A DNA stretch of 32,000 nt from Mucisphaera calidilacus (lineage in GTDB: Bacteria > Planctomycetota > Phycisphaerae > Phycisphaerales > Phycisphaeraceae). The position numbers were made by a program, and so were the translations under genes. The notes beneath the pieces were generated by a model, which ran no database searches, was not told the DNA's origin, and saw nothing but the letters and a program-made list of their open reading frames with translations. Position 1 is the first letter of the stretch. The number at the start of each line of letters is the position of its first letter. The stretch is from NCBI RefSeq assembly GCF_007748075.1, contig NZ_CP036280.1:1770001-1802000 (forward strand), in the 5' to 3' direction. Shown here piece after piece: positions 2,660-20,010 of this stretch.

Positions 2660-4462
2660 ATGCTTCGTCACAGCGCTCGCTGCGCAGCGACGGCGCTCAC
2701 CCTGACACTCGCCGTGTCAGGCTGCGTGTCGCACGACGCACAAACCGATGCGGATCAACGCCCCAACATCCTGCTCATCCTCACGGACGATCAGGGCTAC
2801 GGCGACCTCGCCCTCCACGGGAACCAGCACCTCGACACACCCAGGATGGACGCGCTCGGAAACGCGTCCGTCCGTCTTGACAACTTCCACGCTGCCCCCG
2901 TCTGCTCACCAACACGCGCTTCACTGATGACCGGACGCCAGTTTCTGAGCACGGGAGTCTGGGGTGTTCACGGCGGACGCGATTACCTGCATCTCGGCGA
3001 AACCACCATCGCCCAGCGACTCTCGGCCGCCGGCTACGCCACCTACATGATGGGCAAGTGGCATCTCGGTAAAAGTGCCGCCTACCTGCCCCATCAACGC
3101 GGCTTCGACGAGTCGTGGATGATCACGGACCGTCTCTACATGCACACGGACCCGGTCTTCAATCACAACGGGACCACCGAGAAGCCCAAGGGCTGGACCG
3201 CCGAGATCCTGACCGACCTCGCCATCGACTGCATGTCACGCGAACCCGACAAGCCATGGTTCATCTACCTTGCCCACCCGCTCATCCACGAACCCTATTT
3301 CGCGCCCGACGAGCTCGTCACGAAGTACCGGGCGATGGGCCTCTCCGAATCGCTGGCGACGCTCTACGCCATGACCGAACACCTCGACACCGAGGTGGGT
3401 CGCGTCGTTGACGCCGTCACCGACCGGCAGAATCAGCGTGAAACGATCGTCATATTCATGGGTGACAACGGCCCCATCGGCAACCCGTGGAACCTGCCCC
3501 ATCTGACCGTCGAGGAGATGCAACAGCGAAACCCCCGCGGCTGGCGCGGCACTAAGGGCAATCTCTACGAGAACGGGGCACGGGTTCCCGCTTTCGTCTA
3601 TGCCCCGGAACGCTACCAGCCACGCATCGAGCAGTCTGACACCGATGTCGTGGACATCGTGCCCACCATCCTCGATCTCGCGAGCCTGCCGCACAACGAC
3701 GCCACGTTCGACGGTCTCTCCCTCGTGCCCCTGCTCGAAGGCAAGCCCGACGCGCTTCCCGATCAACGCCCGCTCTTCATGGCCAACCACGACGCACGCT
3801 GGCCCTCGTGGTCTTACCTCTACAGCCACCTGCCCGATCGTGAAGCACTCCGATTTGAGGATCAGGCTGTCGCCGTGCGCGAGGGCCGCTACAAGTTCGT
3901 GCTCGGCTACGGTTCGTCCGCACTCTACGACCTGGCCCTCGATACCGCGGAGCAGCAAGATATCTCAGACCAGCAGCCCGACGTCCGCGACCGCCTCGAA
4001 TCCACGCTCCGGGCGTGGTGGGAAGAGCGGGTTGCCGCCATGCCCGCCAGCTACCACATGCCCACTTTCCAGATCGGTCTGGACAACGCCCCCAGCACCT
4101 ACCTCTACGCCTGCGCTCCGGTCACTGTCCGAGGCGGGGTCCGCACCGCCAGCCACGCCGTGCACGACTGGCAGCAGGATGGCGACGCGATCGGTCTGTC
4201 GGTCAACGTCCTGCGGCCGGGCGCCTACAGCTTGCGTGCCGATCTGGTCGCTGGTGACAACCCCTCAGGATCCCTCACGGTGCGCATCGGTGATGCCACG
4301 ACGACGGCACCGATCAGCGAAATACGCTGGCCAACGATCGGAACCCTCGAACTCCCCGCAGACGAAAACATCATGTGGATCAGCCTCGACCACCCCGGGG
4401 TCGCTGACTCGCCGGTCATTCAAGAGTTGCGTGGTATAGAAATCACCCCAGCTCCACGTTGA
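2660..4462 (+). CDS. Formylglycine-dependent sulfatase, probable lipoprotein, with extra C-terminal beta-sandwich-like domain
   Basis: The ORF track gives 2603..4462. The ATG at 2660 is preceded by GAAGGA and yields MLRHSARCAATALTLTLAVSGC, a signal peptide plus a lipobox-like LAVSGC. Sulfatase signatures are LLILTDDQGYGD and the C-x-P-x-R motif CSPTRASLMTGR (Cys codon 2903..2905). About 150 extra residues follow the catalytic fold. Confidence 0.92.
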   Translation: MLRHSARCAATALTLTLAVSGCVSHDAQTDADQRPNILLILTDDQGYGDLALHGNQHLDTPRMDALGNASVRLDNFHAAPVCSPTRASLMTGRQFLSTGVWGVHGGRDYLHLGETTIAQRLSAAGYATYMMGKWHLGKSAAYLPHQRGFDESWMITDRLYMHTDPVFNHNGTTEKPKGWTAEILTDLAIDCMSREPDKPWFIYLAHPLIHEPYFAPDELVTKYRAMGLSESLATLYAMTEHLDTEVGRVVDAVTDRQNQRETIVIFMGDNGPIGNPWNLPHLTVEEMQQRNPRGWRGTKGNLYENGARVPAFVYAPERYQPRIEQSDTDVVDIVPTILDLASLPHNDATFDGLSLVPLLEGKPDALPDQRPLFMANHDARWPSWSYLYSHLPDREALRFEDQAVAVREGRYKFVLGYGSSALYDLALDTAEQQDISDQQPDVRDRLESTLRAWWEERVAAMPASYHMPTFQIGLDNAPSTYLYACAPVTVRGGVRTASHAVHDWQQDGDAIGLSVNVLRPGAYSLRADLVAGDNPSGSLTVRIGDATTTAPISEIRWPTIGTLELPADENIMWISLDHPGVADSPVIQELRGIEITPAPR

Positions 4463-4572
4463 ATTCAGGTTCATCGAGACTGCAGATTCTGGCACGATCC
4501 ACGCCATGGGTTAGGCATGCTCCCACACAAGCGAGGACGCAACGCGAGATCCTGAAATCGATGGATCAGTTC

Positions 4573-5613
4573 CTAAATTGTGGCCTTGGGTCGGAGTTGT
4601 CGTTGATGGGTCGCAGACAACAACAGCATCAACAACGCGCCTCCAGGCTCGGGAACGGACGCTGCGTACTCGTTAGTTCTGGTCTCGATGGTAAGCCCGA
4701 GCTCGGTATCGGCATCCGGCGGGCTCGTCGCCAGGGGTGCCGCCCGCAGAAAATGACTGGCCAGAACAGAGAGATCCAGAAGGTCAACGGTCAGATCAAG
4801 ATTGAAGTTGGCACCGGCCCACCCGGCGGTCTGCTGGAAGTAGGTGGCAAGAAGTGAAAGGTCGAGGAGATTCACCTCACCGTCGAGGTTGGCGTCGCCG
4901 GGGATCGTGCCCAGCACCTCGGTGATCATGAAGGACAGGTCGTCGCTATCGACTACGCCGGAGTCATCGAGATCGAACGCGGGGTCTGGGCTGCCAGCGC
5001 GAATACCGGCAACCAGCAGGTCGATATCGCTGGCATCAACTTCGTCGTCCTGATTGAGGTCGCCCGGCAAGCCTGACAGCGGCGTCAGCTCGATCCAGCC
5101 GTCGATAATCGTCGGAACGATCGGTCCGAAGTTGGTGGGGTTGTTGATTGTCTGAGACAGGATCAGCGGGAACGGCCCGTCATCTGCGAAGAAGCCGTTC
5201 GTGTCGATCACCAGCGTCGCCAACAAACCGTCAGCAAGAACATTACTTGAGAGCGTGGTCGTCGAATAGAAGGCGACCTGAGGAACGAGAATACCTGAGG
5301 CCGAGCCAAGTCCCGTGTTATTGCTCTCGAAGATGGTGCCGGTGAGGATATCGACACCCGTGATGGAGGGCGCGTCCGTGCCCCCTGCTTCGGGTCCGCC
5401 GTCGCCGATCTGGATGTTGAGGTTGACCCCCTGCACACGGGTGACACTCGTCTGCGCATAGATCTCGAAGGTCTGACCGGTGGTGTTCTCCAGCAACTCG
5501 ATCGTGCCGATCTCGGTCACGCTGTCGGGTCCGTGGATCGTAATCTGGGCGTGGCCCGAACGGGCTGACGCGAGCAGGATAATGGTGGTCAGGATGCGGG
5601 TAAGCGTACTCAT
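4573..5613 (-). CDS. Secreted PEP-CTERM protein: signal peptide, cohesin-like beta-sandwich region, two pairs of dockerin-like Ca-loop repeats, PEP-CTERM anchor
   Basis: 346 aa. Signal peptide MSTLTRILTTIILLASARSGHA. Residues ~23-178 have a cohesin-like pattern (GQTFEIYAQTS..VQGVNLNIQ..., DGLLATLVIDTNGF..GPFPLIL); this call is weak. Dockerin-like repeats: GDLNQDDEVDASDIDLLVAGI, DLDDSGVVDSDDLSFMI, GDANLDGEVNLLDLSLLATYF, ANFNLDLTVDLLDLSVLASHF (nt 4750..5064). The C-terminus VPEPGGALLMLLLSATHQRQLR is a PEP-CTERM motif plus TM segment plus basic tail (nt 4576..4656). Its ATG overlaps the giant ORF stop. Confidence 0.85.
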   Translation of the reverse strand: MSTLTRILTTIILLASARSGHAQITIHGPDSVTEIGTIELLENTTGQTFEIYAQTSVTRVQGVNLNIQIGDGGPEAGGTDAPSITGVDILTGTIFESNNTGLGSASGILVPQVAFYSTTTLSSNVLADGLLATLVIDTNGFFADDGPFPLILSQTINNPTNFGPIVPTIIDGWIELTPLSGLPGDLNQDDEVDASDIDLLVAGIRAGSPDPAFDLDDSGVVDSDDLSFMITEVLGTIPGDANLDGEVNLLDLSLLATYFQQTAGWAGANFNLDLTVDLLDLSVLASHFLRAAPLATSPPDADTELGLTIETRTNEYAASVPEPGGALLMLLLSATHQRQLRPKATI

Positions 5614-8600
5614 CAGCGGCCTCTCCCTGCCACGAGGTTCTCAAGCCGATCGAGCACCTCTGTGTTGGCGTGACGCCATCGGTCGAAGGGCGTGACACGC
5701 AGCGTGTCAAACAGGCCGAGTCGACCGCCCCGCTCGCGGGCCAGGCGTACGGGCTGCGTCCTGTCCACAGATACCTCCGTGCGGCGGCTGAACCAGTCAG
5801 AGGCAAAGTCATCGGGCACATCCGGCTCATCAGGAGGCGGTGCCGCGGCCGCGTGGGTGGTCTCGGCTTCACCAGGCGGCGGGAAGACGAGCGTGTCGTT
5901 GTCGGCGATGAGGAAGGTGTCGTAGTCGTTGGTCTGCCCGATGAGGGTGGGCGTGATGAAGTAGTTGACACGCAAGATGCTGATGTTGCTGTTGCCGGAG
6001 GCGATGTCGTCGAGTTGGACGTAAGCAATCTCGGTCTCCTCGCGGAGCCTGTCATCGACGGGGTTGATAGAGAACGTGGCCGACGTGGACCCGGCGGGGA
6101 TCGTGACGCTCGTGGGCAGGTGGTAGTCGCTGCCTTCTGTGGCTTCGGGATAGAGCGAGATCAGCGGACGCGGCGCGTCCGAGCCCAGGTTGATGACGGT
6201 GTCGGTGGTGGAGACACGGCTCTGCGTGACGAGGAAGGACGCGGGGTTCCTGATGAACGACTCGGCCGCCTGATTGTCGGTCGCGGTGATCGAGACGGTC
6301 GCGGTGTCCTGATCAAAGATGGAAACGGCCTCGACCCGGTCGAGGTCAAAGTCGACGTTGCTCGGGCCGGAGAGGCCGGTCATCTCGATCCAGATTGTTT
6401 CCGTGCCCTCAACGATGTTGTCGTTCTTGATCGTGATGTAGAGGTCTACGGAATGCGTGTTTGCGGGGATGGTGATGGTGCCGGACGGCAGGACGAAGTC
6501 ACTCCCGGCGGTCGCGGTCGATTGGCTCGTGACGGTGTAGTTGATGGTTACGGGCGAGGCCACGGAGGAAGCCGCGAAGGTTGGCGGGTTGGAGCGTATG
6601 TGGAAGAGCCTGAAGGTGAAGCGTGCGCTGGTGCCGTTACCCCCCGAGCCGTTGGGGTCGATGCCGGCCCGCGAGTCCTCGACGAGGATGAAGTGGGGGT
6701 CGTCGTTGTCGGTGATGGAGACGCGCGAGCGGATCGTGAGGTCACCCTTGAGGTTCTCGTCCGGAATAAATATATTGTCGTAATCGAGCGTTGCGGTAGT
6801 GACGTTGATGTAGGCGAACTCGCTGGGTTCGACGCGTGTGTTCTCGATGACCTGGATGCGGATCGTTCCGCTGCTCTCGCCGCTTTCAAGAACCAGTGCC
6901 GCGTTGACAAGACTGATGTCCGGGTCCGTTTCGGAGAAGAAGATGCGGACCTCGGCGTCGTTCGGGACGGCGTCGGTCAGGAAGATGGGCACATCGACAA
7001 ATCCATCACCCTCACCGACGGTGATGTCCGGGAAGACGATCTCGAGGCTGCGGCAGCCGTCGGGCATGAGTCCCGGAAGGTCGAGGCAGCCGGAGGGGAG
7101 CAGGCGGGCGGTGCCGTTCTCGGGCGTGATGCCGGGCAGGTTGAAGAAACCCTGAGCGGTGAACTCGGCCGTGAGCAGCGAGCCGTTGATGAAGGCGACG
7201 TCGACGGAGACGAAGGTGTCGAAGAGGTTGAGGCCGAGGACCTGAGCGAACATCTCGGCCGAGCCGCCGATGGTCAGGCTCGTTCCGGAGGCGATGAAGT
7301 TGAGCGTGCCGACAAGGGTCACGTCCGTGTCGTCGACGATGCCCGGATCGATCAGGATCGAGCCATCAAGGTCGAGTTCGAAGCTGTTGGAACTGACGAA
7401 GTTGCCGTTGATCGTCCTGCCGGAACCGGTCGTGTTGAAACGGAAGTCGGCCGACCCGTTGGCCGTGACGAGCCCACCAAACATCGACGACGACGCATCG
7501 AATCCGACGTAACCGTAGAGATCGATCACACCGCTTGTTGTTCGTGAGACGGTGACGTCACCGAACGACCCGAGATCGATGTCGATGGACTGGTTTCCCG
7601 ACTGGGATGAGAGTGTGCTGGAGCCCGAACCCGGGAGTGTGGCACCGGCTCGGATGACGGTCGGGATCAGGCCGTCGAAGTGGTCGCGGATCTCATCGGG
7701 CAGCCGGGCCTCGATGCCGAGTGAGCCGCTGACGTTGAGCCCGCTGGTATCGGAGAGCGCGATGATCCCCGTACCGCCGAGGGAGAAGATGTCCTCGAAT
7801 AAATCGACGCGAGCATCGCGCAGGCCGAGTTCGATGTAGCTGCCCGACCGGAAACTGATGGTCACGTCGATGTTGTCGGTGATGAAGTCCGGGATGGATC
7901 CCAGACTGCGTCCCATGTTGAAGGCGAGGTACGCCTCGCCGGTGACCTCGGCGACGTTGCGTACGCCGAAGCGACTCGCCTTGACGCCGAGATACCCGCC
8001 AACCGACGGATTGCTGGAGGAACCGCCAATCTCAAGGTAGGCACGCGCCCCCGCGGATCCGAAGAAGCCCATATCCGCGTTGGCGTCGACGAGCAGGTCG
8101 ATCTCGAAGGCGTCGCCTGTGATGGCGATCTGCGTGGCAAACAACCCGTTGAGGCCGACGTCGTAGGGAAGCTGATTGAGTTCAAGATTCCCGCGAGCAA
8201 ACAGGCGGATCGATTGCTCATCGAGAGTAAGCAGGCTCTGGAGGTCACTAGGCAGCGAAACGGGCGTGATGCCCGAGCCTGCGGGAACGCCGTCGAAACT
8301 GAAATCAATCGTTTGTACGTTCGAGCTCGAGTTGAACCCGAAGGCAAGGGTGGTGCCCGCGGAGGCGATAGCGAGGTTGGCGTTGGTGTCGAAGAGGATC
8401 CCGCCGTAGATGCCGTCGTCGACGAGTCGGGGGATCGGCCGACCGCCGATGTCGATGAAGGTCAGCTCGGTGGCCTTCTGGAGGGCCGCCGCGAAGGTCA
8501 CGTCGATGCCGACACTGTCCTGGAAGTTCGGCCCGAGGAAGTCGGCGAGCCCGTTGTCGCTGAGCGACCCCTCGCCGAAGACGACGACCCCGTCGTCGTT

Positions 8601-11600
8601 CGAGCGGAACTGGAACAGCCCTTCAAGTGTGACGGTGCCGAGGTTGAGCGTTCCGTCGACCCAGAGCGTGGCGGAGTCGCGTTCCATCTGGACGCTGTGC
8701 GTCTGCCCGTCGACGGTGAAGGTGAGGGTGCGGGGGCCGTCGGTGTTGTTGACGAGCAGCCGGACGTCGGCGTTTGCGCCGATGTTGATGGTCCCCTCGC
8801 TGCCCAGACTCAGCGTCCCGGTGTCGAGGTCGATGTTGAGGACGCCGTAGTTGCCCTCGTTGGCATCGAGGGTGAGTGAGCCGAAGAGGTCGCCTGAGAT
8901 CCCGCCGCCGAGGCCTTCGAGCACGCCAACCGACCCAGATACGGTGAGGTTGGCAAAGGCGTTGTTGGCCCCGGTGTTCTTGACGATGCTCAGGCGGAGG
9001 TCTTCGGCGCGGAGCACGTCGTCGCTGACGAAGGGCAGCGCCAGCTTGTCGGCCGCAGCGAGGAAGGCAAAGTCAGGCAGGAAGAGGTCGAGCGGGTCAT
9101 TGGGGAACTGCGCCTCGAAGAGCCCGACGGCACCCTCGACGAATCCGGGGATGTTGAGCGTCGCCGAGAGCCTGCCGCCGCCGTAGCGCTGGATGTCGTC
9201 GTTCGTCAGCAGCGGCGGCTGGACGTAGCGCGGATCCGATGGGTCGTTTGTCGGGTGCAGGGGCGGCGTGTCGTTAAAGAAGGGGCTGTAGAACTCCACG
9301 CGGCTGGTCGCGCCGAGCGTCTGCGGGTTGCCCTGGCTGTCGGTGAAGACAAACAGGTCGCCGGCGTTCGGGCCGAAGGAGTCGACCAGCCAGTCCTGGA
9401 TGATGCCGAGATCGAAACCGGCATCGAGACTGACGACGGGGATCGCAAAGTTGAAGTCGCTGGTGAAGTCGAGCATCCCATTGAGGAAATCATCCGCCGC
9501 TCCCCTGCGGTTAGCGGGCAGCAGGGCCTCGATGATCGACAGCCCGCCGGTGATCCCGGTCAACGGGTTGTCGGCCATGTCCCGGATCATCTCGCCGACG
9601 CTGACCTGCGTCATTCTGAGGCCGGTGTTCAGGCTGACGCCAAGCGGGCCGGATTTCGCCTCGATGTTGAGCCCTTCAACGCCGGCGGTGACGCGGCCCG
9701 TACCCAGATCAAGACCGAGGAGGCGAAGATCGAGGAAGCCGTCGATGTAAGCCGAGGCGATCAGATCGGCGGCCTGGGCAGTGGTGTCGTCGAAGCTGAA
9801 GACCGGCGACGCGGGCGGGTCGTACAGGCCGTTGCCGAAGTCCAGGAACGGGTCGCCGAGGTCGTACTGGCCGTTGCCGTTGAGATCGGTGTAGCTCTCA
9901 GTCAGGCTCTCGGAGACGTCGCGCACACCGTTGCCGTTGACGTCCTGGAAGGGCTCGGGCCTTGTGTAAGCACCGTCGCCGTCTGCGTCGATGAAGAGTT
10001 CGCCGTCGGGCAGGCCGTTGCCGTTGAGGTCGTAGAGGATATCGACGCCGAGGTCGAACCGGCCGTTGCCGTTGGTGTCGCTGAAGCCCTCGCTGAGTCC
10101 GATGATCCGGTCGCCTGCGCTGTCGTCCGAGGCAGGTGTATAGCCGTCGGGTATGCCGCCGGGGGAGCTTGCCTCCTCATCGAGGAAGACAGCCAGACTC
10201 GGCAGGGAGGACGGGTCGGCGATCGCCTGGCCGGCGGTGTCGAGAATCGTCTCGTGGAAAGTGACGACGCCGGTCGCCGGGTCTGCCGACCAGTTCAGTT
10301 CGCCGTCGTTGTTCTCGTCGATGAAACCGAGGTCGTTGGCGGCGTCGAAGCCTGCGGCCGAGGCTTCGTCCAGCACACCATTGCCGAGATCTTCCGCGAC
10401 GTCACCGATGCGGTAGGCCGGGAACCCACTGACCAGACTGTAGTCGATCAGGACATCGCCCTGACCGAAGACGAGGTCGCCGACACCCGTGCCCGGGTTG
10501 ATGTCGTCTGCCCAGGCCGTCGTGCCATGGATCAGGATGTCGAAGTAAGGGTCGTAGAAGGCGTTTCCGTTCAGATCGGCGAAACTGAAGCCGGTGTTGT
10601 CGGCCGGGGTTGCTGGGGCAAACGCCGGGTTGCCCTGATCGTCGGTGCCGGTGATCAGGTCGAGGAGGATCCGCTCGCCACTGCCGTAGAGCGGTCCGAC
10701 GACCGCGGGGATGGCGTAGTCGATGAAGCCGTCGACGAGTGTCGCCGGGCTCGGCGCAAAGATCTGTAGCGTGCCGAGGGGCGTGCCGTCGGTGAGTAGT
10801 TCGTTCACGCCGACGAAGTAGGCCGCGATCAGGTCGATGAGTTCGAGACCGGGTTCGCCGAGCGCGAGGATCGAATTGAAGTCGTCAAGATTGAGGACCT
10901 CGGAGCTCAATGTGTCCCAGGGGTCTTCGAGGTCACTCGCGGTCTGAGTTGTCAGGTTCGCGAGTGCTGCGAGGACGGTGAAGGGATCGGTCAGCAGGTC
11001 GGGCAGGAGCAATTCACCGGTCACGAGCAGCCCGCCGAAGGCGGTCATGTTGTCGTAGTTGCTCTGGAGGTAGACCGGGATCATGTCTTCCTGACCGTTG
11101 GGCAGCTCCGTATTCTGACCGTTGAAGGCGAAGTCGTCGGCGTATCCGAAGTTGTAGACACCCTCGGCGAAGAGGGTTCCGCCGATCGCCTGGCCGTTGT
11201 TGTCGGTCTGCTGCGGGCCGAAGATGATCCCGCTCAGGCGAGCGAGGTCGATGCCGTAGAGCCCGATCGTGCCGGCGATCCGCCCTTCCCACCCGGTAAA
11301 CGGATTGAGCGCGTCACCGAAGGCGTCGGCGATCTGCTGCTCGGTGGCGTCGGGGTTGACGAGGACATCAATGAGCACGCCAGGCAGTTGTGCCGTGAAG
11401 CCGAGTTGGAGTCGGTCGGTGATGCCGGCTAGCTGGAACCCGGGGTTGAGCTTGCCGAGGAAGTCGGTGGTCGTGAGGTCGAGGGTGATCAGCCGCTTGT
11501 TGATGACGAGGTCAACCTCATCCGTCGGGTTGCCGATCGGGAACCCGAAGAGTGTCGGCTGGATGGCACCACGCAGCACGAAGGAGGGGTTGAATGCGTT

Positions 11601-14600
11601 GTAGACATCGATTAAGGCGTCGTCGAGGCTGGACAGCGCCCCCTCGAAGGTGTCGATGAAGGCGTCGCCAAGCGTCGACGCGAAGGTCAGCGTCGGATGG
11701 GTCGCGATGGCCTGCTGAGCCTCAAGCCAGAAGGCGGCGACGGTCTCGGTGACGAGGGCCCACTGACCGTTGAGCGGTGTGCCGGGTGGTGTCGGGACCG
11801 ATCCGCTGAGCGAGCCGAGTTGGCTGAGCATGGCGTTCAGCAGGCCTAAGCCGGTCACTGGCGTGTTTGTGGCGAGTCCCAGGCCGGTCATGAGGTCGTT
11901 GGTTCGACTGGCCAGCCGGTCGGCTTCCAGTTGGGCGGCCACCTCGTCCATCAGATCCATCAGCGCGCCGCTGCCGGCCTGCAGGGCACCGTCAAGGATC
12001 GTCTCAAGCCCGATGAACCACGCCTCGATCATGCCCTCGGTTCGGAGTGTGCCGGCGAGTTCGGCGCGAGCCGGGAAGAGGAAGGAGAGCGGGTTGTCAG
12101 CAGGCGGGACGGCAACACCAAAGCTGATCGTGGGATTGAGGACGTCGCGTGCGTCGACGAGCACGCCACCGGTCCCAAAGGGCAAACCAAGGAATCGGAT
12201 GTCACCGGTGCCGAGAATCGAGAGCCCCTGCCCGTCGATCGCCTGATCGAGTGACGGGAGCGTCGCCGCGAACTCACCATTGACCGAGATCAGGCCGGCG
12301 ACGGCCAGGCTGCTGAGCTGCCCCCGGATCGCCATCGTTGCCGGCAGAGACCAGACCGGGTCGAGTCCCGTGCCGTTCCAGAGCTGACCGAGGATGTCCT
12401 CGATGACGGCGATGTCGGTGAGGTCCCAGTCGGCCGGCGAGGGGATATCGGCCGGGTTGATGACCGGCTGGGAGGTGTCGACGTCGGCGAGCAGTTCCTG
12501 GCCGAAGACAATCGTGCCGCCGCCGCCGAGTGTCAGGGTCGTGGGGCCGAGCGGGATCGGGACACCGAAGTCGACCGATGCCGCGATCGGGCCTGCGGTC
12601 GTGAGAACGAGCGTGCCCCCGCCGCCGTAGCTGGAGATCTTGAGCGCGCCGGAGATGGCGAGGTAGTAGATGTCATCGACATCACGCTCGCGGTCGCTGT
12701 TAGCGTCCGCCCTGCCGACGGTGATCGCGCCACTGACGGCCAGGCCGTCACCCAGATCCAGGCCGATCGCGAGCCCAAGCCCGTTGAGATCGTCGAGATT
12801 GACGACCTCGCCAAGGTCAAGCAGCGAGAAAGGAAGTCCCTCGGCTTGAGCTTTGAGGAAAGCCGCCTCGAAGGCATCCAGCACGTCTTCGGGAGACGAG
12901 CTGTCGAGGAAGTCCTCGAACGTCGTGCCCGCGAGCTGACCGGCCCAGTCGAGGAACTGCTCGCCGAGGTCGGTGAGCTTGTCCAGGTCGAAGCCAACAT
13001 CCGAGTAACTCACCTCGGCGTCAATGCCGACGTCGTCGAGCGCGTCACCGAGGAATCCTGGCAGACCGATCGCGCCATCAGTCAGCAGCTTGATGGCGGT
13101 CGGGTCGGCGATGCCGATGACCGGCGGGTCGTCGTCGGATTCGCTGTCGGACTCCTCGAAGGCGAAGAAGCCGTCCTCGAAGGTGACGGTGATCTCGTTG
13201 GTGCGCAGCGGCAGGAACCAGTCCTGCAGGGTGTCGAGCATCGAGCCCTCGTCGAGGCCGATGGTCGCCGACTCGATCGCGCTGAAGTCGGGCAGGGCTC
13301 CTGCGAAGATCGTGATGTTGTTCAGGCTCCCGTAGAGACCGATCGCCGGCGAGGCCAGGGTCAGCGAGAGATTCTCGATAAGAGGCGTCTCGGGGTCATC
13401 CGAGAAGTTCAGGGTGAGTGCGTCGTCGCCCGTCCCGGTGATGCCGGCCTGGAAGTAGTCGCCCAGCCCGAAGGAGAGCCCGTTGGTCGTGGCGCTGAGG
13501 ATGGCGAGATCAAGCGAGCCGCCAGACAGATCGTTCTCCAGCGTCCAGTCGAGACTGCCGTTGAGGCCGAAGCTGTCGAGAACGATGAAGTTGCCGAAGC
13601 CGACGGTGCCGTCGAGGAAGACGCCGCCCGTGAGATTGACCCGGGTCGTGTTGTTCTCAACCAGAACAGACCCGCGCAGCTCGGCCTCAAGCCCGTTGAA
13701 GTCGAAGTCGACGATGACGTCCGCATCCGGCGCGTCACCATCGACGGCGAGTTGGCCGATGAACTGGTCGGCGAGTTGATCGCCGGGCGTGGTCGGGTTG
13801 GCGTCGACTGAGGCGTCGAGGTCATAGAGCAACGGGTTGCCGTCGCCATCGACGCCGTAGCCTAGAAGAACCAGATCGCCATTGGCGTCGAGACGGTAGC
13901 CGGCGAAGCCGAGCGATCCCTCGAAGCCGAAGCCGCCGAACTCGAAACCCTCGAGACCGATGACCACGTCCTGCAGGATCGGGATGACGGGGAAGGTGTC
14001 GCCGCTCAGGTCGAAGACGACGTCGAAGGCAAAGCGGTTCGCGGCGAGGTCGACGGCCTGCCCGCCTGAGTTCGTCCCGGCAAGCGGTGTCTGACCGATT
14101 GAGACGATCGGGTCGAAGGGGAGACCGGTGATGATCGAGAAGTCGAAACCACCCTCAACACCAACGGTGAAATCGAGGAGATCGGTGTACTGATCCGGCG
14201 TCGCCCCAAACACGACCGAGACCTGATCGAGGTCGAAAGGCAGGATGCCGCCGAGGCCGAGTGTCGTCAGGATGCCCTCGCTGTCGCCGGTCGTCGAGAG
14301 GACGAGTTCGCCAAGACCCAGCCGTGTCTCCAGACCGCTCCCGTCATCCACGAGGTTCAGCCGCAGCGCCAGGTCGCTGTTGGCTGGCGTCGGGTTGATA
14401 TCAAATGCGATTCCGCCGAACGGGCCCGCTGCATCGCCAAAGTCGAGTGACGCCTGCTCGATGGTGAGCAGGTCGGTGGCGGGATCGTCGTCCAGCACAA
14501 GCTCGGGATCGGTCAGCACGAGATCGAAGACCGAGCCGCCGTTGTCGAACTCGGGGCCGACTTCCAGTTCTAGACTCAGAGCACTGGCCCGGAAAGTCCT

Positions 14601-17600
14601 GTCGTTCGGGCGGAGCACAACAGCCAGTCCCGAAGCGACCAACTCGACGCCGGGCAGGTTGAGCTCGGTCGATACGGCATTGAGGAGGACGTCAGGCAGC
14701 CCGCCGGCGAGTGATCCGTTGCGGTAGGTCAACTCCGGGACGACCAGCGTGGCGTCGGTCAGCTCGAAGAGCGACCGGCTGTCGAACTCAGGGCCGAACG
14801 TCAGGTCGCCGACGCTGTTGATGGTAAGACCCGTGAAGGAGAAGCCGTCGATCACGCCATCGCTGTCGACGTCGTCGTAGAGCGTGACGTTGTCGACGGT
14901 GGTGCTGATGCCCTCCAGCCCCTCGATCAGGAACTGCAGGGAGGCGCCGTCGGCAGAGGCGATAACCGGTGCTGTGGCGCCGGAGAAGTCGATGTTGGCC
15001 TCTGGAATCGTGAGGCGGGCGAGGCCTTCGATCTCAAGGATCACCTGCTCGAAGCTCGCGCCGGTCAACTCCGGTGTGCCCGAAAGCTGCGGCAGCCCGT
15101 CAGCACCCGGGCTTGCGATCAAGTCCCAGACAAACGTGCCAGTGACCGTTCCGGAGGTAGAACCGCCGAGGAAGGTCAGGTCGCCGGTGACAGTCGCTTC
15201 GCCGTCGAAGCCGATGAGAACCCCCCCGCCGGGTTGGGGAGTAACCGATGCTGCAACGATCACGGTGCCACCGAGCACGCCGGCGTCGGTGTCGGCCGCC
15301 GCGGAGAGGCTCAGGATGGCCTGCGCGGCGGGCGTCACGCCGATCAACTCCGCGGGGATCAGGCTGTTGGGGATGACGCCGAGCGACCCGGCCGCATCGA
15401 CCGGCGGAATCAGCAGGTAGCCACCGAGCAGAAGCTCTTGGTCGCCGGGCAGGCCGACCCTGAAATTCTCCAGCCCGATGCGCAGGCCCGGGATATCGAC
15501 AGGACGAACACCGCCGTTGTCTACGGAAAGCGCGACCGTCAAAGCTCCACCACTGGATAGATCGGTGAGTACGCCAGCATCGTCGTACTCCATCAGCGAG
15601 ACAACAGGATCCGTGCCGAGCAGCAGGCCAAGCTGTGCTTCGAAGGCGGACGTATCAATCGTCGCGGTGGCGCTGATGACGAACGTGCCCAAGTCCACGG
15701 TGCCGTCGGGGAGGCTGTCGAACGTCGCGTTGAGGCTGGTGAGCGCCGCCGGAATGATGTCACCCAGACCGCTCTGGAACGACCAGGCGGGCGGGATATC
15801 CAGATCGACGGACGAGAAGGCAACACCCCCGCCATAACGCAAACCGAAACCGTTGAACGTCGCGGTCGGCGTGTCGTCACCAGCCGTGAGCAGGTTGGCG
15901 GTCAGTTGGATGTTGCCGAAGTCGATCAGCGAATCGCCATCAACAGCATCCGGATCAAGGTTGAGGCTCACAGCGGGGCCGTTCGCAGAGCCATCGATGT
16001 CGAGTTCAAACAGGTCGGCGATGACGGCGTCGATTGAGCGCAGCTGGATCGCGAGCGTCCCGTGTGCAAGATCGAGCTGTGCCTCGACCGCTTCGGTGTC
16101 GTCGCCGCTGTTGTCATCGGTGATGACCAGACTGAAGGGGCCCCCCGGCAGGAGCGTGCCGCCCTCGCTCGAGAGATTGATATAACCCGTGACCTGCCCG
16201 TTTCGGTTCGAGAGGGTGTTGACGGCCAGCGTGGCGGCCCCGAGTTGCAGCACGGTCTGGCCGCCGACCCTGAGCGGAAATGCGCCAAGACTCAGCGATC
16301 CACCAATGAGCTCGAATGATTCAATCGTGAGCGGATCGTCATCCTCATTGAAGAGCGAGACGCTCTGTATCGATGCGTTGGGATCGAGTGTGGCAAAGAT
16401 GCCCTTGAAGTCGAGATCGAACCCGGTCGCGGTGGCCACAAGGCCGTCGGGCCCGGGCGTCGGCAGGTAGGTCATGCCGTCGATGGTCAGCGTTGCGACG
16501 TTGGGCACATCGATGACGAAACGATCGGCCTGGATCGAGGTGACTTCGAATTCGCCGGTGTAATCAAGAGACCCATTGACCTCTTCGAGCCGGACCGGCC
16601 AGTCAAAACTCACCGTGACGTTGCCCGAACCAGAGACACCGAAGACCGAGAGGTCCGAGACGGCGAGTGTGGCCTGACCGGTGAGATCGATCGCGTGCAG
16701 GCCGTGGGTAATGGTCATCGCCCCACCAACCTGAAGCCCGCCCGTCACCGTGCCGAGGCTGCTGGCCGAGACGGCGGCGAGATCGAGGTAGACCTCGTGG
16801 CCGGCGAGCGGTGCGCCGAGCTCAGCGGGCAGAGGCTGGGGCTCGCCTTCCTCGTTGAAGCCGCCAAGGGTCAGCGTCCCGGCCAGTGTGAGCGTTCCGG
16901 CGCCTGACGGCAGAGGCACTTCAATGTTCGAGAGCTGAAGCCGGACTGGCGGCGTCGCCGTCATCTCGAACGCCCCTCCGGCGTAGGCAAGACCAAAACT
17001 CAGGGGGTTGTCCGGTCCGGTCGCAACGAAACCGCCACTGTCGGCGTTGTAAACCTCAACGCTCAGTGAGAGCGATGGCGACCCGAGCAGCGTGCCGAGC
17101 TTGGTCACGAGTGTGTCGGGCCGCGGGACACCGGTGACGGCAAAACTCATCACGCCTTCGTCGCCGGGCGTGTAACCGCCCTGTATCCGGGAAAGCTCGA
17201 AGGGCACGTAGCCGCCCAGTAACAGCTTCTTGCTCACGTTCGCGGGCACGGCTACGTCGAGCGTGAAGGCGCCGGTATTGATATCGATCGACCCGACGTT
17301 GGGGATGGGGATGGCGTCTGCCTCGACACCATCGGACTCGGGCAACACGCCACTCAGCCCGCCGGGGAGAAGACGGAAGTCCTGCGTGCTGAAAACGATC
17401 TCACCGGTCTGGATCGGCTCGCCGTCGGCCAGCGGCCGGAACGTGAAGCCGTTGACACCAAGGGTGAGTTCCCCCAGTGTCAACACCGGTGCTCCGCCGA
17501 TGCCCAGCGAGACATCGCCAACCGTAAAAGTACCTGAGAAACGAAAGCCGTCGACCTGACCGTCGCCGTTGTCGTCGAAGCCCTCGACGCTGCCAAGAGT

Positions 17601-18677
17601 GAGTTCGAGCGTGCCCGCCTCAACCAGCCCGAAGCCGCTCGGCAGGTCGTTGAACGTCGCCTTGGCATCGGTAATGGTGATCAGGGCGTCGGCGTCTCCC
17701 GATGGAGGTACAAAACCGCCGTCAAGCACAAACCAATCGCCGATCGCAATCGTGACGTCCTGCGGCGCGACAACCGAAGATGGATCGATCACCCTGAGGC
17801 GATCGAGAAAGGTGGTCTGGTGGGTCCGTGCGATCTGCTGGTCGTCGCCGTTCACCTGACCATCACGGTTGAAGTCGTGTGGATCCGTGACGAATCGCGG
17901 GATAAAGGGCGGCAACGACGTCGCACCGGCACGAGCCGCGAGTTCGTCGGAGGCATCGACAGTAAAGGAAGCGAGGTCATCACCCGCTTCACCCGGCGCG
18001 CTGCCGAGATAGAACACGTCGGCTTCCGGGAGCCCCGTCGCGAGCGTCGGCAAGACCGTGATCTCAAGCCAGGCTCCGACCACAGCCTCGTTGGGGTCAG
18101 CAACACCGTCATGATCGTTAGCCTGCCAGGCGAGAAAAACACGGTCAGCGCCGCCGAGACCCGCGCCCTCGTCAACAAGGAGGTCAAAGGGATCCTCGGC
18201 GACGCCCCAGCTCGCTGGCTGGTTATCGTTGCCTGACCTGAAGGTGAAATCACTGGCCGACAGTTCCGATGGATCGGCCAATCCCTCAATGTCAACCACG
18301 ACACCCGTCAGGCCGGAGACGAAACTCGAAACATGCGCAAAGGTCGCGGGGCCGCTGTCAGGCAGCAGTGCGGTCTTGTCGGTGGCGATGGCGTGATCGT
18401 CGCCTGGAACCGCTCCGGGTGTCGAATTATCCCACGAGGAGTCGTTGTAATAGAGATTGCGGTAGACCACAGCAGCGCTGCTATCGGCCTCATCGAGCAA
18501 TCCGAGTTGGAGGCTGTCGCCGCTCAGGAGCAGGCGGTCTTCGAGAGATTCGAGCGTGGGCTTGTCCGAAGGTGTCTCACAGACAACCCGCTCACCCGAC
18601 CACGTCGGTTCAAAATGGCTGCCGAACGCCTCCAGCCCCGCGCCACGCGGGTTGTGTCCCTTCTTCCTGTTGCTCAT
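5613..18677 (-). CDS. Giant (4354 aa) acidic extracellular/surface protein; only the termini are assignable
   Basis: Single uninterrupted 13,065-nt ORF with C-ending codon usage like the neighbouring core genes. Its parts are an N-terminal basic leader with LESLEDRLLLS, a dockerin-like loop, a ~3500-aa G/L/D/T/F-rich core with no family I can name, an EF-hand-like DxNGNG cluster, three Calx-beta-like domains and an Arg-rich tail. Confidence 0.9.
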   Translation of the reverse strand: MSNRKKGHNPRGAGLEAFGSHFEPTWSGERVVCETPSDKPTLESLEDRLLLSGDSLQLGLLDEADSSAAVVYRNLYYNDSSWDNSTPGAVPGDDHAIATDKTALLPDSGPATFAHVSSFVSGLTGVVVDIEGLADPSELSASDFTFRSGNDNQPASWGVAEDPFDLLVDEGAGLGGADRVFLAWQANDHDGVADPNEAVVGAWLEITVLPTLATGLPEADVFYLGSAPGEAGDDLASFTVDASDELAARAGATSLPPFIPRFVTDPHDFNRDGQVNGDDQQIARTHQTTFLDRLRVIDPSSVVAPQDVTIAIGDWFVLDGGFVPPSGDADALITITDAKATFNDLPSGFGLVEAGTLELTLGSVEGFDDNGDGQVDGFRFSGTFTVGDVSLGIGGAPVLTLGELTLGVNGFTFRPLADGEPIQTGEIVFSTQDFRLLPGGLSGVLPESDGVEADAIPIPNVGSIDINTGAFTLDVAVPANVSKKLLLGGYVPFELSRIQGGYTPGDEGVMSFAVTGVPRPDTLVTKLGTLLGSPSLSLSVEVYNADSGGFVATGPDNPLSFGLAYAGGAFEMTATPPVRLQLSNIEVPLPSGAGTLTLAGTLTLGGFNEEGEPQPLPAELGAPLAGHEVYLDLAAVSASSLGTVTGGLQVGGAMTITHGLHAIDLTGQATLAVSDLSVFGVSGSGNVTVSFDWPVRLEEVNGSLDYTGEFEVTSIQADRFVIDVPNVATLTIDGMTYLPTPGPDGLVATATGFDLDFKGIFATLDPNASIQSVSLFNEDDDPLTIESFELIGGSLSLGAFPLRVGGQTVLQLGAATLAVNTLSNRNGQVTGYINLSSEGGTLLPGGPFSLVITDDNSGDDTEAVEAQLDLAHGTLAIQLRSIDAVIADLFELDIDGSANGPAVSLNLDPDAVDGDSLIDFGNIQLTANLLTAGDDTPTATFNGFGLRYGGGVAFSSVDLDIPPAWSFQSGLGDIIPAALTSLNATFDSLPDGTVDLGTFVISATATIDTSAFEAQLGLLLGTDPVVSLMEYDDAGVLTDLSSGGALTVALSVDNGGVRPVDIPGLRIGLENFRVGLPGDQELLLGGYLLIPPVDAAGSLGVIPNSLIPAELIGVTPAAQAILSLSAAADTDAGVLGGTVIVAASVTPQPGGGVLIGFDGEATVTGDLTFLGGSTSGTVTGTFVWDLIASPGADGLPQLSGTPELTGASFEQVILEIEGLARLTIPEANIDFSGATAPVIASADGASLQFLIEGLEGISTTVDNVTLYDDVDSDGVIDGFSFTGLTINSVGDLTFGPEFDSRSLFELTDATLVVPELTYRNGSLAGGLPDVLLNAVSTELNLPGVELVASGLAVVLRPNDRTFRASALSLELEVGPEFDNGGSVFDLVLTDPELVLDDDPATDLLTIEQASLDFGDAAGPFGGIAFDINPTPANSDLALRLNLVDDGSGLETRLGLGELVLSTTGDSEGILTTLGLGGILPFDLDQVSVVFGATPDQYTDLLDFTVGVEGGFDFSIITGLPFDPIVSIGQTPLAGTNSGGQAVDLAANRFAFDVVFDLSGDTFPVIPILQDVVIGLEGFEFGGFGFEGSLGFAGYRLDANGDLVLLGYGVDGDGNPLLYDLDASVDANPTTPGDQLADQFIGQLAVDGDAPDADVIVDFDFNGLEAELRGSVLVENNTTRVNLTGGVFLDGTVGFGNFIVLDSFGLNGSLDWTLENDLSGGSLDLAILSATTNGLSFGLGDYFQAGITGTGDDALTLNFSDDPETPLIENLSLTLASPAIGLYGSLNNITIFAGALPDFSAIESATIGLDEGSMLDTLQDWFLPLRTNEITVTFEDGFFAFEESDSESDDDPPVIGIADPTAIKLLTDGAIGLPGFLGDALDDVGIDAEVSYSDVGFDLDKLTDLGEQFLDWAGQLAGTTFEDFLDSSSPEDVLDAFEAAFLKAQAEGLPFSLLDLGEVVNLDDLNGLGLAIGLDLGDGLAVSGAITVGRADANSDRERDVDDIYYLAISGALKISSYGGGGTLVLTTAGPIAASVDFGVPIPLGPTTLTLGGGGTIVFGQELLADVDTSQPVINPADIPSPADWDLTDIAVIEDILGQLWNGTGLDPVWSLPATMAIRGQLSSLAVAGLISVNGEFAATLPSLDQAIDGQGLSILGTGDIRFLGLPFGTGGVLVDARDVLNPTISFGVAVPPADNPLSFLFPARAELAGTLRTEGMIEAWFIGLETILDGALQAGSGALMDLMDEVAAQLEADRLASRTNDLMTGLGLATNTPVTGLGLLNAMLSQLGSLSGSVPTPPGTPLNGQWALVTETVAAFWLEAQQAIATHPTLTFASTLGDAFIDTFEGALSSLDDALIDVYNAFNPSFVLRGAIQPTLFGFPIGNPTDEVDLVINKRLITLDLTTTDFLGKLNPGFQLAGITDRLQLGFTAQLPGVLIDVLVNPDATEQQIADAFGDALNPFTGWEGRIAGTIGLYGIDLARLSGIIFGPQQTDNNGQAIGGTLFAEGVYNFGYADDFAFNGQNTELPNGQEDMIPVYLQSNYDNMTAFGGLLVTGELLLPDLLTDPFTVLAALANLTTQTASDLEDPWDTLSSEVLNLDDFNSILALGEPGLELIDLIAAYFVGVNELLTDGTPLGTLQIFAPSPATLVDGFIDYAIPAVVGPLYGSGERILLDLITGTDDQGNPAFAPATPADNTGFSFADLNGNAFYDPYFDILIHGTTAWADDINPGTGVGDLVFGQGDVLIDYSLVSGFPAYRIGDVAEDLGNGVLDEASAAGFDAANDLGFIDENNDGELNWSADPATGVVTFHETILDTAGQAIADPSSLPSLAVFLDEEASSPGGIPDGYTPASDDSAGDRIIGLSEGFSDTNGNGRFDLGVDILYDLNGNGLPDGELFIDADGDGAYTRPEPFQDVNGNGVRDVSESLTESYTDLNGNGQYDLGDPFLDFGNGLYDPPASPVFSFDDTTAQAADLIASAYIDGFLDLRLLGLDLGTGRVTAGVEGLNIEAKSGPLGVSLNTGLRMTQVSVGEMIRDMADNPLTGITGGLSIIEALLPANRRGAADDFLNGMLDFTSDFNFAIPVVSLDAGFDLGIIQDWLVDSFGPNAGDLFVFTDSQGNPQTLGATSRVEFYSPFFNDTPPLHPTNDPSDPRYVQPPLLTNDDIQRYGGGRLSATLNIPGFVEGAVGLFEAQFPNDPLDLFLPDFAFLAAADKLALPFVSDDVLRAEDLRLSIVKNTGANNAFANLTVSGSVGVLEGLGGGISGDLFGSLTLDANEGNYGVLNIDLDTGTLSLGSEGTINIGANADVRLLVNNTDGPRTLTFTVDGQTHSVQMERDSATLWVDGTLNLGTVTLEGLFQFRSNDDGVVVFGEGSLSDNGLADFLGPNFQDSVGIDVTFAAALQKATELTFIDIGGRPIPRLVDDGIYGGILFDTNANLAIASAGTTLAFGFNSSSNVQTIDFSFDGVPAGSGITPVSLPSDLQSLLTLDEQSIRLFARGNLELNQLPYDVGLNGLFATQIAITGDAFEIDLLVDANADMGFFGSAGARAYLEIGGSSSNPSVGGYLGVKASRFGVRNVAEVTGEAYLAFNMGRSLGSIPDFITDNIDVTISFRSGSYIELGLRDARVDLFEDIFSLGGTGIIALSDTSGLNVSGSLGIEARLPDEIRDHFDGLIPTVIRAGATLPGSGSSTLSSQSGNQSIDIDLGSFGDVTVSRTTSGVIDLYGYVGFDASSSMFGGLVTANGSADFRFNTTGSGRTINGNFVSSNSFELDLDGSILIDPGIVDDTDVTLVGTLNFIASGTSLTIGGSAEMFAQVLGLNLFDTFVSVDVAFINGSLLTAEFTAQGFFNLPGITPENGTARLLPSGCLDLPGLMPDGCRSLEIVFPDITVGEGDGFVDVPIFLTDAVPNDAEVRIFFSETDPDISLVNAALVLESGESSGTIRIQVIENTRVEPSEFAYINVTTATLDYDNIFIPDENLKGDLTIRSRVSITDNDDPHFILVEDSRAGIDPNGSGGNGTSARFTFRLFHIRSNPPTFAASSVASPVTINYTVTSQSTATAGSDFVLPSGTITIPANTHSVDLYITIKNDNIVEGTETIWIEMTGLSGPSNVDFDLDRVEAVSIFDQDTATVSITATDNQAAESFIRNPASFLVTQSRVSTTDTVINLGSDAPRPLISLYPEATEGSDYHLPTSVTIPAGSTSATFSINPVDDRLREETEIAYVQLDDIASGNSNISILRVNYFITPTLIGQTNDYDTFLIADNDTLVFPPPGEAETTHAAAAPPPDEPDVPDDFASDWFSRRTEVSVDRTQPVRLARERGGRLGLFDTLRVTPFDRWRHANTEVLDRLENLVAGRGR
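5895..7034 (-). other. Three tandem Calx-beta-like domains (res 3882-4261) of the giant protein
   Basis: Three ~112-135-aa units. Each ends with the typical Calx-beta pattern: ..IENTRVEPSEFAYINVT..ITDNDD; ..ATAGSDFVLPSGTITIPANTHSVDLYITIKNDNIVEGTETIWIEM..IFDQD; ..ATEGSDYHLPTSVTIPAGSTSATFSINPVDDRLREETEIAYVQL..IADND. Confidence 0.7.
9830..10330 (-). other. Cluster of EF-hand/dockerin-like Ca-binding loops inside the giant protein (res ~2780-2950)
   Basis: DENNDGELNW, DTNGNGRFD, DLNGNGLPDGELFIDADGDGAY, DVNGNGVRD, DLNGNGQYD. The plus strand shows ccgttgccgtt four times (from 9871, 9928, 10015, 10063), which is NGNG on the coding strand. Confidence 0.6.
17778..18554 (-). other. N-terminal module of the giant protein (LESLEDRLLLS motif, conserved planctomycete-type N-domain, single dockerin-like loop)
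   Basis: LESLEDRLLLS is residues 42-52 (nt 18522..18554). Residues ~70-265 read VVYRNLYYNDSSWDN...DDHAIATDKTALLPDSGPATFAHVSSFVSGLTGVVVDIEGL...SASDFTFRSGND...DRVFLAWQ...AWLEITVLPT...ADVFYLG. From memory, this resembles an N-terminal module common in large planctomycetal exported proteins. HDFNRDGQVNGDDQQIAR (nt 17826..17876) is a dockerin/EF-hand-like loop. Confidence 0.5.
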
Positions 18678-19790: not shown

Positions 19791-20010
19791 TGATATCGAC
19801 GATCCCAGACGGCTTAGTGGGACAGAGCTCCGATGGGAATTGTTAGCCTAGGGTTATTTCCAGCTTGTTATGTGGGTGAGATGAGCAAGATAGCGCATGG
19901 GCCGGGTCGGTTAGGCGTAGATAGGGTGCCACGCTCATGGGTTTCGGCGTGTGTCGGTTGTTGAGAGAGACCCGAGCCTTTGGATGAATGACCTGAGAGA
20001 GGGATTTGCG

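Follow-up and report, generated by a model that had tools for sequence, protein, structure and literature searches.

What do the many small PEP-CTERM proteins of bacterial surfaces do, and how are giant LEPR-XLL proteins without a signal peptide displayed on the cells of Planctomycetota and Verrucomicrobiota? These two gaps meet in a 32,000-nucleotide stretch of the genome of Mucisphaera calidilacus, of the Phycisphaerae in Planctomycetota (contig NZ_CP036280.1, positions 1,770,001 to 1,802,000; hereafter the window), where a gene for a giant LEPR-XLL protein runs directly into a gene for a small protein with a PEP-CTERM-like tail. The question raised by this locus is whether the small protein holds the giant one at the cell surface. 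Our answer, given with moderate confidence, is that it probably does, by means of a cohesin-dockerin-type contact. We read the small protein as an envelope anchor of the giant protein because a cohesin fold (in a domain of the small protein called ND here) and a dockerin homologue (in a module of the giant protein called MOD) are neighbors or fused across two phyla, and because an exosortase-type tail follows ND. In the mechanism we propose, the small protein would be a secreted cell-surface anchor composed of a signal peptide, ND, two type-I-like dockerins (in this lineage) and a PEP-CTERM-type tail, the last of which would attach it to the envelope by way of the exosortase pathway. MOD, at amino acids (aa) 70-297 of the giant protein, would dock onto ND in a Ca-dependent contact of the cohesin-dockerin type, and this contact would tether the giant protein to the surface. 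We infer the ND-MOD binding, its Ca dependence, exosortase processing and surface location from co-occurrence.

The gene pair and its junction are laid out as follows:

5613..18677, minus strand: giant gene, an open reading frame (ORF) for a 4354-aa LEPR-XLL protein.
4573..5613, minus strand: small gene, an ORF for a 346-aa protein, product QDU71552.1 / WP_145445693.1.
5611..5627, minus strand: junction, with the box GGGAGAGG at 5627..5620, the giant-gene TGA at 5615..5613 and the small-gene ATG at 5613..5611.

The small-gene product is 100% identical to the two database entries, which are labeled hypothetical or dockerin domain-containing protein. Read on the minus strand (...GCAGGGAGAGGCCGCTGATGAGTACG..., in the junction sequence GCAGGGAGAGGCCGCTGATGAGT), the stop codon of the giant gene and the start codon of the small gene have one base in common, and the Shine-Dalgarno-like box lies 6 nt 5' of the small-gene ATG. 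Both features had been reported in an initial annotation of this DNA, and both hold. In sequence scans, the last part of the giant gene had no promoter-like site and 4300..5800 no terminator-like one; for the region upstream of the giant gene, the scan for both kinds of site was uninformative. On the 3' side of the small gene, a sulfatase gene and a glycoside hydrolase family 130 (GH130) gene lie convergently on the opposite strand, with a LacI regulator beyond, and the giant and small genes therefore form the end of a transcription unit. The overlapping reading frames would help joint production of the two proteins; the overlap itself is directly visible, and translational coupling is what we infer as its mechanism.

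Could such an arrangement arise without any functional tie, from two surface-protein genes that share one transcription unit by chance? Overlaps of one or four bases are common in compact bacterial operons, and the pair is not singled out by a promoter-like or terminator-like signal. Yet giant and small genes with overlapping stop and start codons are also found in two other Phycisphaerae genomes, from Mucisphaera sp. and a Phycisphaeraceae metagenome-assembled genome (L001 and L002). At 4331 and 4281 aa, the orthologous giants match the window giant with 59% identity across about 3350 aa, and the small-gene orthologues are 55% identical to the window small protein. In both orthologous pairs the overlap has the form ATGA, with a purine-rich box (GGAGGTGG or GAGGAAG) upstream. 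The genes downstream of the pair differ between the window and the two orthologous loci, and the pair itself is kept. Retention of the overlapping pair at 55-59% protein identity, together with a linkage of ND and MOD that holds in two phyla and in several arrangements (below), makes a chance association unlikely; we regard it as very improbable.

If the pair has been kept together, what does the small protein contribute? Its parts are:

5548..5613, minus strand: probable Sec signal peptide, aa 1-22 (MSTLTRILTTIILLASARSGHA, then Q), judged from sequence.
5080..5547, minus strand: ND, aa 23-178, a cohesin-fold domain by AlphaFold2 (AF2) and Foldseek, without Pfam or NCBIfam annotation.
4909..5064, minus strand: dockerin module 1, aa 184-235, two Ca-loop/helix repeats (Pfam Dockerin_1 at aa 183-233; PDB dockerin 5lxv_B, E 0.001).
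4750..4899, minus strand: dockerin module 2, aa 239-288 (second Pfam Dockerin_1 stretch, about aa 237-290; PDB dockerin 2y3n_B).
4576..4656, minus strand: PEP-CTERM-like tail VPEPGGALLMLLLSATHQRQLRPKATI, aa 320-346, a divergent copy; its VPEP is invariant in alignment A1.

ND carries the central result on the small protein. Pfam had no match for ND in 13 family members searched at E<=10, nor in the whole small protein searched at E<=1. NCBIfam gave no match, no PDB sequence was matched from the single sequence or from a profile, and cohesin (PF00963) was not among the results; a profile search of the cohesin families with aa 23-178 thus gave nothing by sequence. The sole ND profile hit in PDB sequences, tRNA 2'-phosphotransferase (E 1.7), was set aside as noise. 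Structure prediction was more informative. In a first AF2 model, of the full small protein with a 13-sequence alignment, ND had a predicted local distance difference test (pLDDT) score of 50-79, and this model was not used for the fold search. The model that we used, of aa 21-178 alone with a 119-sequence family alignment, has a pLDDT of 97.5 and a predicted template modeling score (pTM) of 0.90, and is all-beta with 10 strand segments, in agreement with the nine-stranded jelly-roll beta-sandwich of the cohesin fold. When this model was searched against the PDB with Foldseek, 34 of the 34 top matches were cohesins (prob 1.00, E 4e-5 to 1e-2). Among them are cellulosomal cohesins of types I and III, the cohesin of the cell-surface anchor ScaE (2zf9; query TM score, TMq, 0.61), the cohesin-XDoc (X module-dockerin) complexes 4iu2 and 4iu3, and non-cellulosomal cohesins from Archaeoglobus fulgidus and Clostridium perfringens. 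Thus, the cohesin-like beta-sandwich proposed in the initial annotation stands at the level of the predicted fold but not at that of sequence: going by the model, ND is cohesin-fold without being a member of the cohesin family by sequence profile. By an exhaustive profile search, which covered 1.84 billion representative proteins, the ND family has 2437 clusters at E<=1e-3.

The remaining parts of the small protein were compared in A1, an alignment of the window protein with 12 homologues. Its layout is a signal-like N-terminus, a well-conserved ND of about 155 aa, dockerins and a VPEP tail. The N-terminus MSTLTRILTTIILLASARSGHA|Q resembles a Sec signal, probably a genuine one, and in the alignment the N-termini of the homologues are likewise hydrophobic, with an end of the AxA type. 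The two pairs of dockerin-like Ca loops noted earlier were borne out: Dockerin_1 (PF00404) matches in two stretches, hence two modules, at E 2.4e-10 (40.9 bits against a cutoff of 22.9; 42.3 bits for aa 179-293 alone), and the four loops are canonical, of the DxNxDGxVxxxD type. The number of dockerin modules per homologue varies (0, 1, 2 or 4). Judging from the family alignment, the two dockerins of the window protein are a lineage-specific insertion, most family members consisting of a signal, the cohesin-like domain and a PEP-CTERM tail.

The C-terminal tail VPEPGGALLMLLLSATHQRQLRPKATI follows the PEP-CTERM order, with VPEP first, then a hydrophobic stretch, here a short one, and then a small number of basic residues. 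It matched the tails of PEP-CTERM families only weakly (E 0.06 and 0.18), and two homologues, P0004 and P0013, score above the TIGR02595 cutoff (21.2 and 23.4 bits against 16). Of the PEP-CTERM signal claimed by the initial annotation, the window copy has the motif order and the VPEP, invariant among homologues, and it is below the TIGR02595 and PF07589 thresholds. Among the 78 ND-bearing ORFs of any size whose 3' end is complete, 46 have an xPEP motif in the last 45 aa. Nearly all of those that bear it are small stand-alone ORFs, in which the tail has VPEP, a hydrophobic stretch and an Arg-rich end, and the last ND strand often passes directly into VPEP. P0004 (aa 92-213) and P0013 (aa 71-194) also give a weak match to NCBIfam floc_PepA, the flocculation-associated PEP-CTERM protein (E about 1e-6, about 28 bits against a cutoff of 80). 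This match takes in some 100 aa on the N-terminal side of the tail and so runs into ND; we discounted it as evidence on ND, as the score probably comes mostly from the tail.

The presence of dockerins on the small protein itself allows for another arrangement. ND could be a hub for the dockerin and PEP-CTERM proteins of M. calidilacus, or the dockerins of the small protein could plug into another scaffold, and the giant protein would then be an operon neighbor only. At least 10 M. calidilacus paralogues with unrelated N-terminal domains have a C-terminal region of dockerin(s), with or without PEP-CTERM, in common with the small protein, and the dockerins of the small protein are canonical while that of the giant is divergent. 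Most ND family members and their neighborhoods, however, have MOD but no canonical dockerin, and the giant and small pair is kept in three genomes despite changing surroundings. We consider this arrangement improbable, and return to the reading in which the small protein anchors the giant one.

What, then, could ND bind on the giant protein? The features of the giant protein are:

18519..18554, minus strand: LEPR-XLL / 'Planctomycete extracellular' motif LESLEDRLLLSG, aa 42-53 (NF012209; PF07595 weak).
17787..18470, minus strand: MOD, a conserved module of ~230 aa, aa 70-297 (alignment A4, 33 copies).
17787..17993, minus strand: dockerin-like MOD tail, with loop-helix 1 GEAGDDLASFTVDASDELAARAG at aa 229-251 and loop-helix 2 DFNRDGQVNGDDQQIARTHQ... 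at aa 268-297.
6366..6563, minus strand: Calx-beta domain (PF03160), aa 4039-4104, in the C-terminal part (36.2 bits against a cutoff of 27).
5616..5717, minus strand: conserved C-terminal tail GLFD..PFDRWRHANTEVLDRLENLVAGRGR, kept in the L001 and L002 orthologues; not PEP-CTERM.

The giant is a LEPR-XLL protein in that it is very large and has an N-terminal LExLExRxLLS motif; NF012209 scores 18.1 bits on aa 1-322, above the cutoff of 17, and 14.9 bits, below it, on the whole 4354-aa protein. A Pfam scan found at least one Calx-beta domain in it and no carbohydrate-active domain. It has no xPEP tail, in agreement with the earlier statement that it is without a PEP-CTERM of its own.

MOD follows the LEPR-XLL motif and consists of a domain of about 155 aa and then a probable dockerin, divergent and with two loops; in the window, the MOD hidden Markov model (HMM) matches 17781..18461 at E 1.6e-72. 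The consensus of the 155-aa part in A4 runs FYNxSxFDG...AIAxDKxALLPG...NYTSYxxGINGxMVD...WLQVTV..., and this part has no Pfam or PDB sequence match. The tail of A4 is a duplicated loop-helix, GNAIGExGNSxxNAxVNATDExxARNN, a linker and YDxNRDxxVNATDxxIARxNxT. In the window, loop 2 (DFNRDGQVNGDD, aa 268-279) is a canonical DxNxDGxVxxxD loop. When the MOD profile was compared with PDB sequences, 10 of 11 matches were dockerins, the best being 4fl4_A (E 5.8e-4), with a match that spans both loops. Weak Dockerin_1 matches occur in 17 of the 33 MOD copies (best 1.4e-4), and hhalign aligned the MOD tail with the bona fide dockerins of the small-protein family at 78.5% probability (E 1.7e-5). By these family-level sequence comparisons, the MOD tail is probably a divergent dockerin. 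The initial annotation had placed a dockerin-like loop near the N-terminus of the giant; that loop, DFNRDGQVNGDD, is present, and it is the second loop of a two-loop dockerin rather than a lone one. A single isolated Ca loop was accordingly rejected, as the module alignment reveals the second loop-helix repeat.

The C-terminal tail of the giant, GLFD..PFDRWRHANTEVLDRLENLVAGRGR, resembles the WLYEFE...(E/Q)AVDxLLxxYWP ending of other MOD-bearing proteins. A tail of this kind, 50-90 aa past MOD, closes many MOD-bearing large proteins (L019, L025, L027, L048, L069, L078, L087, L103, L141 and many others), and it could act as a distinct C-terminal signal for sorting or assembly. Another ending, (R/K)F(Y/F)R(V/L/F)..., occurs on some ND-bearing and some MOD-bearing large ORFs, both in Verrucomicrobiota genome loci (L021, L045, L054) and in unclassified metagenome contigs (L064, L066, L067, L091, L100-L102, L106). 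It seems to replace the PEP-CTERM or AVDxLL tail.

If MOD is the partner of ND, the two should be linked in other genomes as well. We scanned one genome per species with the ND alignment as query, which yielded 50 loci from Planctomycetota and Verrucomicrobiota, and scored MOD and ND by HMM searches of six-frame ORFs from loci found via ND and via MOD. MOD lies within 10 kb of ND in 32 of the 50 ND-found genome loci. Among these 32, the gap between ND and MOD is at most 1.5 kb in 26, where about 5 would be expected if distances were uniform (binomial p 1e-16); the two are on the same strand in 28 (p 2e-5) and within one ORF in 12. In distant lineages (L004, L008, L011), ND genes adjoin large genes with bodies unrelated to the giant, and the sole segment in common is MOD: aa 42-314 of the giant align with these unrelated large proteins at about 40% identity (E 4e-47). 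Usually, MOD lies at or near the C-terminus of a large protein (from 1200 to more than 3300 aa), and the very next gene is a small one of the signal-ND-PEP-CTERM type; a few lineages, Mucisphaera among them, have MOD at the N-terminus instead, just past LEPR-XLL. Among the matches listed from the exhaustive profile search, 20 of 33 ND proteins of at least 600 aa also contain MOD, often in the order ND-MOD-ND. Thus, the pairing proposed in the initial annotation extends beyond the overlapping genes of three Phycisphaerae genomes, as ND and MOD are neighbors or fused across two phyla. Two of the outcomes that it named as refuting, no cohesin-like fold in predictions and no conserved gene pairing, were both contradicted. 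Its reading is thus supported in part: the lone loop gives way to a whole conserved module, and the PEP-CTERM tail of the window copy is atypical.

The same survey brings out the ND-MOD-ND chains, which allow for a second explanation. ND-MOD-ND could be one structural cassette at the ends of large surface proteins, binding a third partner such as exopolysaccharide, the S-layer or peptidoglycan and split over two genes in Mucisphaera; the small protein would then be a co-expressed matrix component and not an anchor. The recurrence of ND-MOD-ND in single chains with linkers of 5-10 residues fits such a cassette, as does the fact that most MOD copies have no ND nearby. PEP-CTERM proteins moreover generally go with exopolysaccharide-producing organisms, as Haft et al. 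reportedly described in 2006, and M. calidilacus makes a dense matrix. In Mucisphaera, on the other hand, some 13 kb separate the ND gene from MOD, which lies N-terminally in the giant, and the linkage is therefore one between genes and not the product of fission at a domain boundary. A plain cassette also leaves aside that the MOD tail is homologous to dockerins while the fold of ND is that of the dockerins' natural partner, and that domains fused in some proteins and encoded by separate neighboring genes elsewhere are the usual sign of physical association. We therefore think the cassette unlikely and continue to favor the anchor.

Several observations nonetheless weigh against an anchor of this kind. 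On the side of ND, the similarity to cohesins is moderate (template modeling (TM) score 0.47-0.63 and identity 6-16% to the matched PDB cohesins, with no cohesin sequence profile match). On the side of MOD, loop 1 in the window (GDDLASFTVDASD) is degenerate, and the dockerin-like stretch of the window MOD, searched alone, has no Pfam match at E<=10. In the fused proteins, 5-10 residues of one chain separate ND from MOD, and the two could make up a fixed unit in cis instead of a docking pair. The giant protein has no obvious or classical signal peptide, the window tail of the small protein is called by neither PF07589 nor TIGR02595, and no exosortase-like ORF was noticed within the 32-kb window, where the exosortase (EpsH family) gene was not searched for. 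Finally, the linkage is incomplete. There is no MOD at 17 of the 50 ND loci; at one further ND locus, that of the Mucisphaera sp. pair (L014), the N-terminus of the giant, where MOD is expected, lies beyond the 10-kb flank. Among 80 metagenome loci retrieved by way of MOD, only 16 have ND within 10 kb. This rejects an ND partner for every MOD gene, and MOD copies therefore outnumber ND copies. In cellulosome producers, dockerins likewise outnumber the anchoring cohesins. The excess of MOD also leaves room for MOD functions that are independent of ND.

Beyond the gene pair, we tentatively propose a widespread and undescribed surface-assembly system of Planctomycetota and Verrucomicrobiota that would be cellulosome-like but not for cellulose, a proposal that we hold with less confidence than the anchoring of the giant. 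Its components would be PEP-CTERM/exosortase-sorted cohesin-fold anchors missed by profiles (at least 2400 clusters at 50% identity), scaffoldin-like proteins with multiple ND copies, and a terminal plug, made of a domain and a divergent dockerin, on giant adhesin-like proteins. Some of the listed proteins have four or five ND copies, as in scaffoldins. Two of them, P0326 (2799 aa) and P0327 (1947 aa), have four ND copies, no MOD and a scaffoldin-like look; the copies in P0327 are regularly spaced at 366 aa. In L004 (1..16175), one small ND-PEP-CTERM gene (7672..8325) lies amid three different large genes, each with MOD, which is N-terminal after LEPR-XLL in two of them and about 190 aa from the C-terminus in one; here, one anchor gene may serve several cargo genes. 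Tandem arrays are found in L132 (1..11812), and also in L092, L112, L116 and L125, with as many as six genes in a row on one strand that encode proteins of about 670-960 aa. Each gene of an array of the L132 type ends exactly with MOD (...TALQLITVP, stop), and no ND was found within the locus.

Other proteins of the window and of M. calidilacus have related features. Divergent from the giant gene, a 784-aa protein (19951..22305, plus strand) has the PEP-CTERM-like end ...MLPEPSGAVVLGLGAAGLMRRR, with a dockerin-like double loop just before the tail, and past it a 313-aa protein (22753..23694, plus strand) has the PEP-CTERM-like end ...IPEPATATLLTIGCFTLARRLGY. These features were seen by eye and were uncalled by Pfam or NCBIfam at the thresholds used. 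An ORF at 24641..25222 (plus strand) is probably an insertion sequence fragment; its product looks like a DDE (rve-type) transposase, of which it would be the C-terminal portion (...ERWRRHYNTIRPHSSL...). Elsewhere in M. calidilacus, a C-terminal cassette of type-I-like dockerin(s) and PEP-CTERM is found in the paralogues P0011, P0012, P0016, P0018, P0021, P0031, P0032, P0034, P0039, P0053 and P0061, the N-terminal domains of which are unrelated (serine hydrolase, aspartyl protease, GH16 and others). A dense extracellular matrix surrounds M. calidilacus as it grows (PMC8882080); this fits heavy investment in surface and matrix proteins and is not specific evidence for the anchor.

If the anchor reading is correct, cohesin-dockerin assembly would be used far beyond the cellulosomes of Firmicutes, with an exosortase-type anchor, and thousands of unannotated ND proteins would gain a fold and a testable ligand. 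Two small recombinant fragments of M. calidilacus Pan265, a strain in culture, would suffice for a test, and ND and MOD would provide two new domain models for annotation pipelines. If the wider system also holds, exosortase sorting would be tied to cohesin-dockerin assembly, which would explain how giant LEPR-XLL proteins stay on the cell. A literature search found no paper that combines PEP-CTERM, cohesin and dockerin, and exosortase together with cohesin only in an unrelated one.

How does the proposed pair compare with known systems? PEP-CTERM/exosortase protein sorting (TIGR02595) is said to have been described by Haft et al. in 2006 and 2012. Small ND proteins are like other members of the PEP-CTERM family in having VPEP, a hydrophobic helix and a basic cluster, and the members of that family are mostly small secreted proteins without a known function. 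In contrast to the usual PEP-CTERM protein, the ND passenger has a recognizable fold and a candidate ligand, and the window tail scores below the profile cutoffs. Non-cellulosomal cohesin and dockerin modules were reportedly surveyed by Peer et al. in 2009. For Planctomycetota, the 'planctosome' hypothesis, developed for Nemodlikiaceae, holds that cohesin and dockerin modules assemble non-cellulolytic surface complexes (Andrei et al. 2019, PMC6461901). That model involves cohesins detectable by profile and a lamin-tail-domain anchor, and is without PEP-CTERM, LEPR-XLL proteins, the ND family and MOD.

In Clostridium thermocellum, the type II cohesin anchors SdbA, OlpB and Orf2p bind the X-Doc II dyad that ends a very large protein, CipA. 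Those anchors have S-layer homology (SLH) repeats and serve cellulase organization, whereas the small protein here has a PEP-CTERM-like tail and the giant has no carbohydrate-active domain. The closest likeness is to ScaE of Ruminococcus flavefaciens, a product of the sca cluster with a single cohesin and an LPXTG sortase signal, to which ScaB and CttA attach by their XDoc dyads (PMC5301203). ScaE is small and secreted, and its C-terminal signal serves covalent attachment to the envelope; the small ND protein is likewise small and probably secreted, with one cohesin-fold domain and a putative sorting tail. In the sca cluster, the anchor is encoded with large proteins that dock to it through a module followed by a dockerin, and in the window the candidate anchor gene adjoins that of the MOD-bearing giant. 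The conserved domain of about 155 aa precedes the dockerin-like tail of MOD, in the place that the Ig-like X module has in an XDoc dyad. The two systems differ in that the host here is of the Gram-negative type (the Planctomycetota, Verrucomicrobiota and Chlamydiota, or PVC, group), and in the sorting signal, LPXTG/sortase for ScaE and a PEP-CTERM/exosortase-type tail here. ND, moreover, is invisible to cohesin sequence profiles and matches at the fold level only, and the docking module may be N-terminal, as here, or C-terminal. The candidate cargo is a 4354-aa LEPR-XLL/Calx-beta protein and not a cellulase scaffold, and its MOD would meet ND in a contact deduced from genomes. By analogy with these systems, the layout points to a cellulosome-style hanging of giant proteins on the cell surface.

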